NCBI GenBank assembly: GCA_002869165.1
Contig: PKTK01000001.1
Span: 157,006-221,005, forward strand
Direction: 5' to 3'
From: Candidatus Parcubacteria bacterium
Lineage (GTDB): Bacteria; Patescibacteriota; Patescibacteriia; Patescibacteriales; UBA12075
DNA: 64,000 nucleotides
Positions 14,015 through 16,780 of the stretch are shown piece by piece. The position numbers and the translations under genes are program-made. The number at the start of each line of letters is the position of its first letter. Positions within the stretch are counted from its first letter, which is position 1. Below the pieces are notes generated by a model, which worked only from the letters and a program-made list of their open reading frames with translations, did not search any database and had not been told where the DNA came from.

Positions 14015-16780
14015 ATGGATAAATATAACCCAAATAAAATTGAGTCGAAATGGCAGGAAAAATGGGCTCGCGATAAGGAATATGTAAGAAAAGAGAATGA
14101 AAGAGAAAAGTATTATATGCTTGATATGTTTCCCTATCCATCAGGGGATGGTCTTCATATGGGGCATACCGAATCATATACTGCATCAGACATTATTTAT
14201 AGATATAAGAGGTTAAATGGTTTTAATGTTTTACACCCACAGGGCTTTGACTCTTTTGGTTTACCGGCTGAGAATTATGCTATTAAAACTGGTGTGCATC
14301 CAAAAGTTACTACAGAGAAAAATGCTGCTAATTATATTGTACAGATGAAGATGCTTGGACTTGGGCATGACTTGGAAAATATGGTTTATACTTCAAGACC
14401 AGATTATTACAGATGGACACAATTTTTGTTCGCCAAGTTTTTTGAGGGAGGTTTGGTAGAGCGCAAGACCGATACAATTAATTGGTGTCCGAGTTGTAAT
14501 ACTGGCATTGCTAACGAGCAAGTAGAGGACTCTAAATGTGAGCGTTGTGGTACAGAGATTGAACAGAAAGAAATTCCTGGCTGGTTTTTTAAGATTACTG
14601 ATTTCGCAGATGAATTGATTGAAGGCTTAGATAAAATTGACTGGCCAGAGCATACAAAGAAGAATCAGCGGAATTGGATTGGGAAAAGTGAAGGAGCGAA
14701 GATAAAATTCTCTGTCATTCCTGGCAAGCGAAGCGAGGGAAAGGAATCTCGTGAAGAAGAGTCTCTTGAAGTTTTTACTACTCGACCGGATACGCTTTTT
14801 GGCGCAACTTATATGGTGATAGCACCTGAGCATCAACTGATTGCAAATACTAAACAACAAATAACAAATTACAAAGAAGTTGAGGAATATATTCAGAAAG
14901 CAAAAAATAAGACTGAGATGGAGAGGCAGGAGAATAAAGAAAAGACTGGGATAAAGATTGAGGGCCTTAAGGCAATTAATCCTGCAACAAATGAGGAGAT
15001 ACCTATTTTTGTGGCTGACTATGTTCTCGGGGGCTATGGTACAGGTGCGATTATGGCTGTACCAGCTCATGATGCTAGAGATTATGAGTTTGCAATTAAG
15101 TTTAATCTGCCTATTAAACAAGTGGTGGCACCTTTTTGGCAAGCAGAGAATGACTGGTATGACGCTGTACGAGAGGATTTGGAAACTGTTGAGCGAAGAC
15201 TGGTTTATGCTTTGGTTAAAAATCCAAAAGACAATAAAGTTTTACTTTTAAAATGGCCTGGATATAATACCCATACATTTATAGTTGGGGGAGTAGAAGA
15301 AGGGGAAGATCTTGTAGAGGCTGCTCGAAGAGAAGTCCTGGAAGAGACGGGTTATAAAAATTTAAAATTGATCAAGGAATATAATGATGAGGTGCATGTT
15401 AAATATTGCGCAGTTCATAAGAATCAAAATAGATATGCCATGGCCAAATGTATTCAATTTGAACTAGAAGATGAAGAAAGAACAAAAGTGAGTGATGATG
15501 AAAAAGCTAAACATGAAGCTCTTTGGGTGACTGAAGAAGAGGCTGAAAAACTGCTTGAATACAAAAATTTTACATATTTTTGGCAGATGTACAAAAAAGG
15601 AGAAGAAGTCTTTGTGGGTAATGGAAATATTATTAATTCAGGAGATTTTAATGGTTTAGATGTAACTGAAGCTAAAGAAAAAATAACCAAATTTGTAGGT
15701 GGTGAAATGACAGCGACTTATCGTTTGCGTGATTGGTCTATGTCTCGGCAGAGGTATTGGGGTGCTCCCATTCCTATAGTTTATTCACCAGAAGGCGAAG
15801 CTAAGTATGTTGGGGATGAGAATTTGCCCTGGCTGTTGCCTGAAGATGTTGATTTTGTGCCAACTGGTGAGTCGCCACTTAAACTTTCAAAAGAGTTACT
15901 CGAGCGAACTGAAAAAATCTTTGGTAAAGGATGGACTCCAGAAGTTGATACTATGGATACCTTTGTTTGTTCTTCTTGGTATTTTTTGCGCTATCCCGAT
16001 ACAAAGAATGAACAAGAGTATTGTTCAGAAGAGAAATTGAAGGATTGGTTGCCGGTTGATTTTTATATTGGTGGTCCTGAGCATACCTATATGCACCTTC
16101 TATATGCAAGGTTTTGGGTCAAGGCTATGCACAGGCTTGGCATGATAGATTTTGACGAGCCTTTTATGAAGCTTCGCCATCAGGGTATGGTCCTTGATAA
16201 GCAAGGTGTTAAAATGAGTAAGTCAAAGGGGAATGTAGTAAACCCAAATGATATGGTGAGCCAGTTCGGCGCTGATGCCACTCGTTTATATATGATGTTT
16301 GCAGGTCCCCTGGAAGATGATGTGATGTGGAATGAGGAAGGAGTGAAAGGTGTTTATCGTTTTTTAGAGAAAACTTGGAAAGTTTTTAATGAAATTGAAA
16401 TGATTGATTGTGGACCTGATTGTAGGGGGGTTGATGAAGCTATTCTAGGCCTTTACCATAAGACAATTAAAAAGGTTACAGATGATATTGAAAATATTAG
16501 TTTCAATACAGCAATTTCAGCGATGATGATATTTGTTAATGAATGTTTGAAACAGGAAAAATTACCAGCTCCTGCCATGAAAAACTTTTTAATTTTATTA
16601 TCTCCATACGCTCCTCATATTACCGAAGAATTGTGGGTAAAAATGGGAGGAAAGGGTAGCATATTTAATGCTAAGTGGCCAAAGTATGATGAGGCAATGT
16701 TGAAAGACGAGCTGATCAAAATTGTTGTACAGGTGAATGGGAAGCTTCGTGATACTTTGGAGGTGGATGCAGATATTTAA
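14015..16780 (+). CDS. leuS: leucine--tRNA ligase with embedded Nudix domain; the frame continues past the TAA at 16778 to 16897
   Basis: HMGH and KMSKS motifs, [34 protein letters not shown]; the conserved C-terminal tail lies after the in-frame stop. Confidence 0.9.
   Translation: [921 protein letters not shown]
14713..14755 (+). repeat. in-frame copy of the TGTCATTC...GGAATCTCGTGAA element inside leuS
   Basis: TGTCATTCCTGGCAAGCGAAGCGAGGGAAAGGAATCTCGTGAA; both ends match the intergenic copy at 4154-4215; encodes [14 protein letters not shown]. Confidence 0.75.
15128..15612 (+). other. Nudix hydrolase domain inserted in LeuRS
   Basis: Perfect Nudix box [23 protein letters not shown] at 15287-15355. 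Confidence 0.75.

Follow-up and report, generated by a model that had tools for sequence, protein, structure and literature searches.

How does a segment that recurs between genes come to stand in frame inside the gene of an essential enzyme, and does it matter to that enzyme? The question is raised by leuS, the leucyl-tRNA synthetase (LeuRS) gene at 14015–16897 (+ strand) in a stretch of 64,000 nucleotides (nt) from Candidatus Parcubacteria bacterium (assembly GCA_002869165.1, contig PKTK01000001.1, positions 157,006–221,005). This whole stretch is called here the window, and positions are those of the window unless another locus is named. The segment, at 14713–14755 (+ strand), is 43 nt long (TGTCATTCCTGGCAAGCGAAGCGAGGGAAAGGAATCTCGTGAA) and codes for 14 amino acids (aa), residues 234–247. 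The sequence evidence makes it one copy of an NTS-like repeat, a short non-coding hairpin. The repeats of the Neisseria Transformation Sequence (NTS, CGTCATTCCCGCGMAVGCGGGAATCYRG) are oriented hairpins that flank the genes of small single-domain GIY-YIG nucleases (Ssn, cd10448) and are cut as single-stranded DNA by Ssn (PMC11893778). The explanation that we favour, and consider very probable, is that this essential enzyme has a permissive loop in which an NTS-like repeat became fixed, in frame, as a tolerated passenger.

The copy in leuS and its family

The leuS copy begins with TGTCATTCCCGGC and ends with GGGAAGGGAATCTCG. A long-form copy at 4154–4215 (+ strand), located between genes, agrees with it at both ends: TGTCATTCC(C/T)GGC on the 5' side and GGGAA(G/A)GGAATCTCGTGAA on the 3' side. 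An earlier note on this stretch, made from the letters alone, had pointed to this match and read the leuS segment as an in-frame copy of a dispersed element. Both claims hold: the window has four copies of the element and other organisms about 150, and the match is beyond chance. Within the window the 5' end TGTCATTCCCGGC, with at most two mismatches, is observed 4 times for 0.49 expected; the 3' end GGGAAGGGAATCTCGTGAA, with at most three mismatches, 3 times for 0.02 expected; and the joint pattern TGTCATTCCN{15,45}GGAATCTCG 3 times versus 0.00 in 100 shuffles. The element can be written as GTCATTCC(C/T)GGC, a variable interior, then GGGAA(G/A)GGAATC.

The two further copies in the window form an inverted pair. 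The left half (18117–18181, + strand) is degenerate (TGTTATTCCCGGC...GGGGATCTTGTCAG), and the right half (18194–18256, − strand) is a long form recovered through its 5' end, its 3' end and the joint pattern. Like the copy at 4154–4215, the pair at 18117–18256 sits between open reading frames (ORFs); it folds as DNA at −31.4 kcal/mol (z = −4.3). All four copies possess stem arms of the ATTCCC/GGGAAT type, the element being an oriented hairpin whose flanks (GTC... and ...C) are not palindromic. The leuS copy has an ATTCCT/AGGAAT outer stem, and its centre contains GCGAAGC, a very stable single-stranded DNA mini-hairpin. This copy aligns without gaps with 35-nt short forms from unrelated AT-rich metagenome contigs (33 of 35 positions identical with that of locus L057, 32 of 35 with that of L086), which indicates that it is a complete short-form element and not merely the two ends of a long copy. 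The gap-free alignment with short forms from AT-rich loci includes the flanks, and the full footprint in leuS is thus probably 14708–14764 (+ strand), where the core follows a 5' flank rich in pyrimidines (TTCTCT) and precedes a 3' tail rich in purines (TCGTGAAGAAGAG).

When metagenomes were scanned with GTCATTCCYGGCN{8,38}GGGAARGGAATC, the matches listed comprised at least 142 copies in at least 120 loci (L049–L168), on contigs of 25–72% GC and mostly between genes. Among these listed copies the ends are constant and the interiors mostly unique (105 different for 142 copies). The long forms have self-complementary interiors, in which the best stem averages 6 bp versus 3 bp in shuffles; many copies lie in inverted pairs 20–150 bp apart, as at 18117–18256, and the 35-nt short forms are common in AT-rich contigs. 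Coding copies are rare: 1 of the 23 copies in low-GC loci falls inside an ORF of at least 200 aa. A scan of genome contigs with GTCATTCCYGGCN{12,42}GGAATCTCG gave 45 matches, for about 17 expected by chance according to our estimate; no Patescibacterium was among these matches, and one 30%-GC metagenome-assembled genome holds near-identical short forms.

Two details bear on the origin of the leuS copy. The sixth pair of the outer stem, CC(C/T)...(G/A)GG, covaries across the metagenome copies (C-G 137, T-A 4, T-G 1, C-A 0; Fisher p = 3e-7, for copies that are not all independent). The leuS copy carries T-A at this pair, as do copies in L057, L110 and L055; it was therefore probably inherited from the source copy and not selected in leuS. 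Second, the 3' tail TCGTGAA is common to the leuS copy and to that at 4154, and to none of the approximately 150 copies in 1.1 Mb of other loci. A tail confined to these two copies points to an origin of the leuS copy in the repeat population of its own genome.

The segment lies within a 921-codon ORF (14015–16780), and leuS uses one of the four stop-free reading frames of the element. According to Pfam this ORF is a leucyl-tRNA synthetase of the bacterial type with all LeuRS domains, and its translation contains HMGH and KMSKS, so that the ORF is open and the catalytic motifs are kept despite the insert. Could the insert nevertheless be an assembly artefact, repeats being able to give chimeric joins in metagenome assemblies? 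This has practically no chance of being so. The second member of the 90%-identity protein cluster (P0241, 960 aa) is coded on three other, independent assemblies, from ENA (500,921-bp contig), JGI (369,492 bp) and Logan, whose DNA agrees with the window at 99.9% identity across as much as 22.9 kb. All three carry the identical element inside an intact 960-aa leuS, which brings to four the assemblies containing it, and the repeat is shorter than one sequencing read. An artefact is thereby excluded.

The gene of the window differs from its sisters in another respect. An in-frame TAA (16778–16780, codon 922) ends it at 921 aa, where the sisters have TCA (Ser) and continue up to 960 aa; beyond the TAA, a further 39 codons (as far as 16897) retain the coding of the conserved C-terminal end (EEEIKKLALESEKVEKW...VSVVV). 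This TAA reflects either an error of sequencing or a nonsense mutation peculiar to the strain, in both cases unrelated to the insert, and the deposited LeuRS of 921 aa is probably truncated.

The loop at the entry to the editing domain

The earlier note had placed the insert in a variable stretch just before a conserved block that marks the entry to the editing domain, and had proposed to align orthologs and to model the loop. The location is borne out: the insert immediately precedes FTTRPDT, with its threonine-rich TTRPDT motif, and stands at the start of the editing domain, whose Pfam match (PF13603) covers residues 219–377. The insert makes up the tip of the first beta-hairpin of this (CP1) domain (14684–14779, + strand), the predicted strands being at residues 224–236 and 249–255. 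In an AlphaFold2 model obtained with 68 sequences (mean pLDDT 86.3, pTM 0.80), the sole segment with a pLDDT below 50, residues 239–247, is inside the insert. The repeat-coded V and I prolong the strand, while the remaining 12 residues are hydrophilic and predicted to be disordered. The insert is thus predicted to be a surface loop extension that leaves the fold undisturbed.

The alignment in turn reveals the extra residues. We measured the loop as the stretch between NWIG(K/R)S and FTTRPDT in 119 relatives. It counts 18 aa in 45 of the 119 relatives, with a median of 22 aa, and 28 aa here. The LeuRS of Thermus thermophilus, for which structures are solved (e.g. 1h3n), also has an 18-aa loop and shows a 10-residue gap in the alignment. 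The nearest relative (P0002, 75% identity, in the syntenic locus L001) has a loop of 22 aa, NVVGEKGEVLSDLEV. The loop of the window therefore exceeds the 18-aa minimum by 10 residues and that of the nearest relative by 6. The motif is lacking in the 118 other measurable relatives. We also considered whether the L001 loop is a decayed copy of the element, and rejected this: the local alignment of its DNA with the element is no better than with shuffles (p = 0.17–0.33).

These comparisons bear on a further possibility, namely that the match is due to chance, or that LeuRS had these residues ancestrally and leuS is the source of the intergenic copies; the earlier note had named homologous residues in distant orthologs as the observation that would overturn its reading. 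Only one hint of this kind appears, an EGKE of the insert that HMMER aligns with an EGKE in the Thermus loop. This is a four-residue coincidence, missing in closer relatives. With 0.00 matches expected from shuffles, some 150 dispersed copies, mostly intergenic, in organisms of 25 to 72% GC, and a loop comparison in which no other LeuRS has the motif, both versions of this possibility are refuted, and we give them a negligible probability. The sequences compared indicate that the inserted residues are lineage-specific.

Disparities between relatives are large at this site. The loop exceeds 18 aa in 74 of the 119 and reaches 419 aa, including whole domains. In 11 of the 119 (P0009, P0012–P0014, P0018, P0029, P0053, P0060, P0064, P0067 and P0101) inserts of 145–419 aa occupy the same hairpin tip, in the loop that corresponds to 14723–14758 of the window. 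Among the Pfam domains recorded for these 11 proteins are Ser_hydrolase PF06821, which P0018 has twice, PF13366 and NUDIX (P0060 and P0064). Repeats are found there too. In locus L170 (P0101) the sequence CGTCATTGCGAGCGGTAGCGAAGCAATCCAG stands in frame at the same tip, where it is read as VIASGSEAIQ, and it has at least five intergenic siblings within 15 kb; decayed versions of the L170-type repeat are found in P0026 (L047), P0053 and P0098. In L048 (P0003, 67% identical) a canonical NTS, TGTCATTCCCGCGAAGGCGGGAATCCAG, is in frame in a different loop of the editing domain and is read as CHSREGGNP. This copy, which has an intergenic sibling, passes the strict motif published for the Ssn-related motifs (SRM), HGTCWYN(0-2)YYVSBRHN(0-5)WNVSBRGN(0-2)RNCYNB (PMC11893778). 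Taken together, these proteins suggest that the loop is unconstrained in length and accepts from 0 to about 400 extra residues. Coding copies survive where the protein is indifferent to them.

One could instead suppose that NTS-like repeats systematically supply Patescibacterial proteins with new loops, and that the presence of different families at the same LeuRS tip (in the window, and in L170 and its relatives) reflects targeted integration at a preferred DNA site, e.g. by Ssn-type single-strand cutting and repair, rather than relaxed selection. If so, the site would also explain the whole-domain inserts (hydrolase, PD-(D/E)XK, Nudix). We regard this as unlikely.

Other observations concern the same loop and the same protein. 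The loop often codes for ISNFQF(S/P)... peptides (ISNFQFPISNQ and similar), in L048 (10664–10740) and in P0034, P0044, P0052, P0086, P0095 and P0118. The DNA of the L048 loop is an AT-rich tract of AATTTTC-type heptamers, a kind of repeat that is intergenic in the window, so that translation at this site extends to a second class of non-coding repeat. In P0058 the loop LPAGRQGS shows a tentative resemblance to the palindrome CCTGCCGGCAGG, with no sibling copy in its locus. Finally, a NUDIX hydrolase domain with a Nudix box is found within the LeuRS of the window itself, at 15197–15553 (residues 395–513; Pfam E = 2.8e-13), inserted between the end of the Pfam match of the editing domain and a following 12-residue stretch. 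It is common to most of the close relatives, which are Moranbacteria-like, and the literature that we searched contained no description of a NUDIX domain in LeuRS.

Fate of the insert and other features of the window

The favoured course of events would be the following. A repeat of the intergenic type, from the genome's own population, would have become fixed inside leuS. Thanks to a stop-free frame it is translated as a hydrophilic, probably disordered extension of the surface loop at the tip of the editing-domain hairpin, and the enzyme would tolerate it because the loop is unconstrained in length. The copy would have arrived by the route that spreads the intergenic copies; this probably passes through single-stranded DNA and employs a small GIY-YIG (Ssn-type) nuclease, or else consists in recombination of one copy with another. 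Part of the native loop tip would probably have been replaced, by an insertion and a deletion or by recombination patching, because 43 is not a multiple of 3, because removal of the 14 residues leaves a loop of 14 residues versus 18 in the smallest loop observed, and because no usable target-site duplication is present.

The same three features would also suit another route, in which the segment entered leuS from an intergenic copy that served as partner in recombination, gene conversion or repair patching, so that the native tip was replaced without any insertion of an element; so would the similarity of the flanks to other copies, which runs into leuS codons. This proposal nevertheless differs from the favoured explanation in the route of arrival alone, and the sequence does not separate the two routes. 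We hold it to be very unlikely.

The earlier note left open whether the enzyme tolerates the repeat or has domesticated it. Tolerance agrees with a disordered loop and with a site that accepts 0 to about 400 residues, while domestication found no positive support. A domesticated insert would have a role either in the protein, as a loop contacting the tRNA or a partner near the editing site, or in DNA or mRNA as a hairpin, e.g. as an Ssn-type target limiting recombination or transformation at leuS. The NTS repeats of Neisseria do modulate the integration of transforming DNA (PMC11893778), but no ssn gene was seen in the window. Four assemblies have the insert fixed and in identical form; they differ by only 0.1%, however, and their identity is therefore silent on constraint. 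The stem pair is kept as T-A and not broken, but intergenic copies elsewhere have the same variant. Likewise, the repeated use of this loop in relatives comes with every length and sequence at the site, including none, and the loop is predicted to be disordered. Domestication thus appears distinctly unlikely to us.

Several results weigh against the passenger explanation itself. The leuS copy does not match the strict SRM motif: its 5' half (TGTCAT and a TCCTGGC-type arm) and its last 6 nt (ATCTCG) fit, and its interior is too long. Single copies folded as RNA or DNA give z-scores near 0, no better than shuffles; only the covariation and the inverted pair argue for the hairpin structure. No Ssn or GIY-YIG gene was found in the window by regular expression, tblastn, Pfam on small ORFs or a hidden Markov model (HMM) built from the GIY-YIG neighbours of copies in other loci (best E-value 0.29). 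More generally no nuclease or transposase gene was seen in these 64 kb of a genome of roughly 585 kb, where the search was targeted at GIY-YIG only. There is no clean target-site duplication at the leuS copy, only a flanking direct repeat TCTCT (14709–14713 and 14762–14766), 53 nt apart and incompatible with the frame. An insert-free allele of the lineage was not found, and since the nearest relative is only 75% identical the empty site is deduced by comparison. Lastly, that the insert is selectively neutral is an assumption.

The window contains other repeats and small genes. About 12 nt beyond each of the (AAGAATT)n heptamer tracts at 4086–4153 and 39667–39749 come AATTGTCAT and a hairpin element. 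The element at 39724 is of a different type, TGTCATCTCGAACGAAGTGAGAGACC; over 60 nt the two composite units share 82% identity. A separate dispersed palindromic family, ATTCGTAAATTCGTA...TACGAATTTACGAAT, is present at 9527–9613, 16910–17049 and 47957–48005, one copy being directly downstream of leuS. Three genes belong to PF05635, the four-helix-bundle family named "23S rRNA intervening sequence" (8265–8486, − strand; 12407–12763 and 41640–41996, + strand). Inverted AT-rich heptamer repeats (12371–12402 and 12782–12820) enclose the gene at 12407, in the manner of a small cassette.

Comparison with known repeat systems

In sequence the element is closest to the NTS/dRS3 and SRM repeats (Nat Commun 2025, PMC11893778). 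With NTS it shares the 5' end GTCATTCCCG, the ATTCCC/GGGAAT stem and, in 3', GGGAATC followed by YNG; both are oriented, dispersed, mostly intergenic and often arranged in inverted pairs. A subfamily of the window type also flanks Ssn-like GIY-YIG genes in other loci: with the HMM, built from GIY-YIG ORFs, such ORFs were found to adjoin subfamily copies in five metagenome loci (L052, with copies on both sides, L053, L076, L110 and L167). In two loci of Fibrobacter genomes (L002 and L045) the GIY-YIG gene adjoins a simpler form, GTCATTCCCGGCTTGACCGGGAATCTCG, and not this subfamily, and the related leuS loci L001, L047, L048, L169 and L170 have no GIY-YIG gene. Locus L110 is a 32%-GC contig with the T-A variant, and its protein has as closest relatives sequences annotated as Patescibacterial or Parcubacterial GIY-YIG nucleases (PF01541 on record).

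At 457–931 of this locus we observed the 100-aa GIY-YIG gene of a probable Patescibacterium, then an NTS-like GTCATTCCTGCGGAGGCAGGAATCC at 771–795 and a copy of the GGC...GGGAA subfamily at 896–931. Since both repeat types occur in L110, one genome can hold several subfamilies beside one nuclease gene.

The window element differs from NTS by an additional GGC...GGGAA layer and a variable interior of 8–38 nt, and by its host, the Patescibacteria having 0 mentions in PMC11893778. In addition, the leuS copy lies in coding sequence and is translated. We therefore describe the element as NTS-like: it is related to the Ssn-related motifs, but its membership among them is not proven.

Small non-autonomous hairpin repeats of the MITE or REP type (Coxiella QMITE, ERIC and BOX; REP/BIME with RAYT) offer a second comparison, since they too occasionally give rise to in-frame fusions or extensions. 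The leuS copy differs from MITEs in having no terminal inverted repeats with a target-site duplication. No RAYT or insertion sequence (IS) gene was seen, though no search specific to them was made beyond GIY-YIG.

The Rickettsia palindromic elements (RPEs, reviewed in PMC10969869) are the textbook example of palindromic repeats that stand in frame within protein-coding genes. The present case resembles them in four respects: a housekeeping gene has received a dispersed palindromic repeat in frame, its reading frame stays open, the fold is predicted to accommodate the site, and orthologs exist without the insert. RPEs are nevertheless larger, about 100–150 bp with a conserved peptide of 30–50 aa, whereas the leuS element measures 43–57 nt and adds about 10 residues. 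The host belongs to another phylum and there is no sequence relationship, so that the element is not a member of the RPE family.

What the locus adds is modest: it places this repeat class in Patescibacteria, in coding sequence and at a recurrent site, where the literature that we searched contained no repeat insertion in proteins of the candidate phyla radiation. The recently described hairpin repeats of the NTS/Ssn type also populate the tiny genomes of Patescibacteria and can be translated inside an essential enzyme. This may help to interpret odd "low-complexity" stretches in proteins of uncultured bacteria, and the LeuRS loop, which in nature admits inserts ranging from a few residues to whole domains, could be useful for enzyme engineering. 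No new mechanism is revealed, and the leuS insert is a new example of a known phenomenon: its closest functional analogy is the in-frame insertion of RPEs, and its closest sequence relatives are the NTS/SRM repeats.

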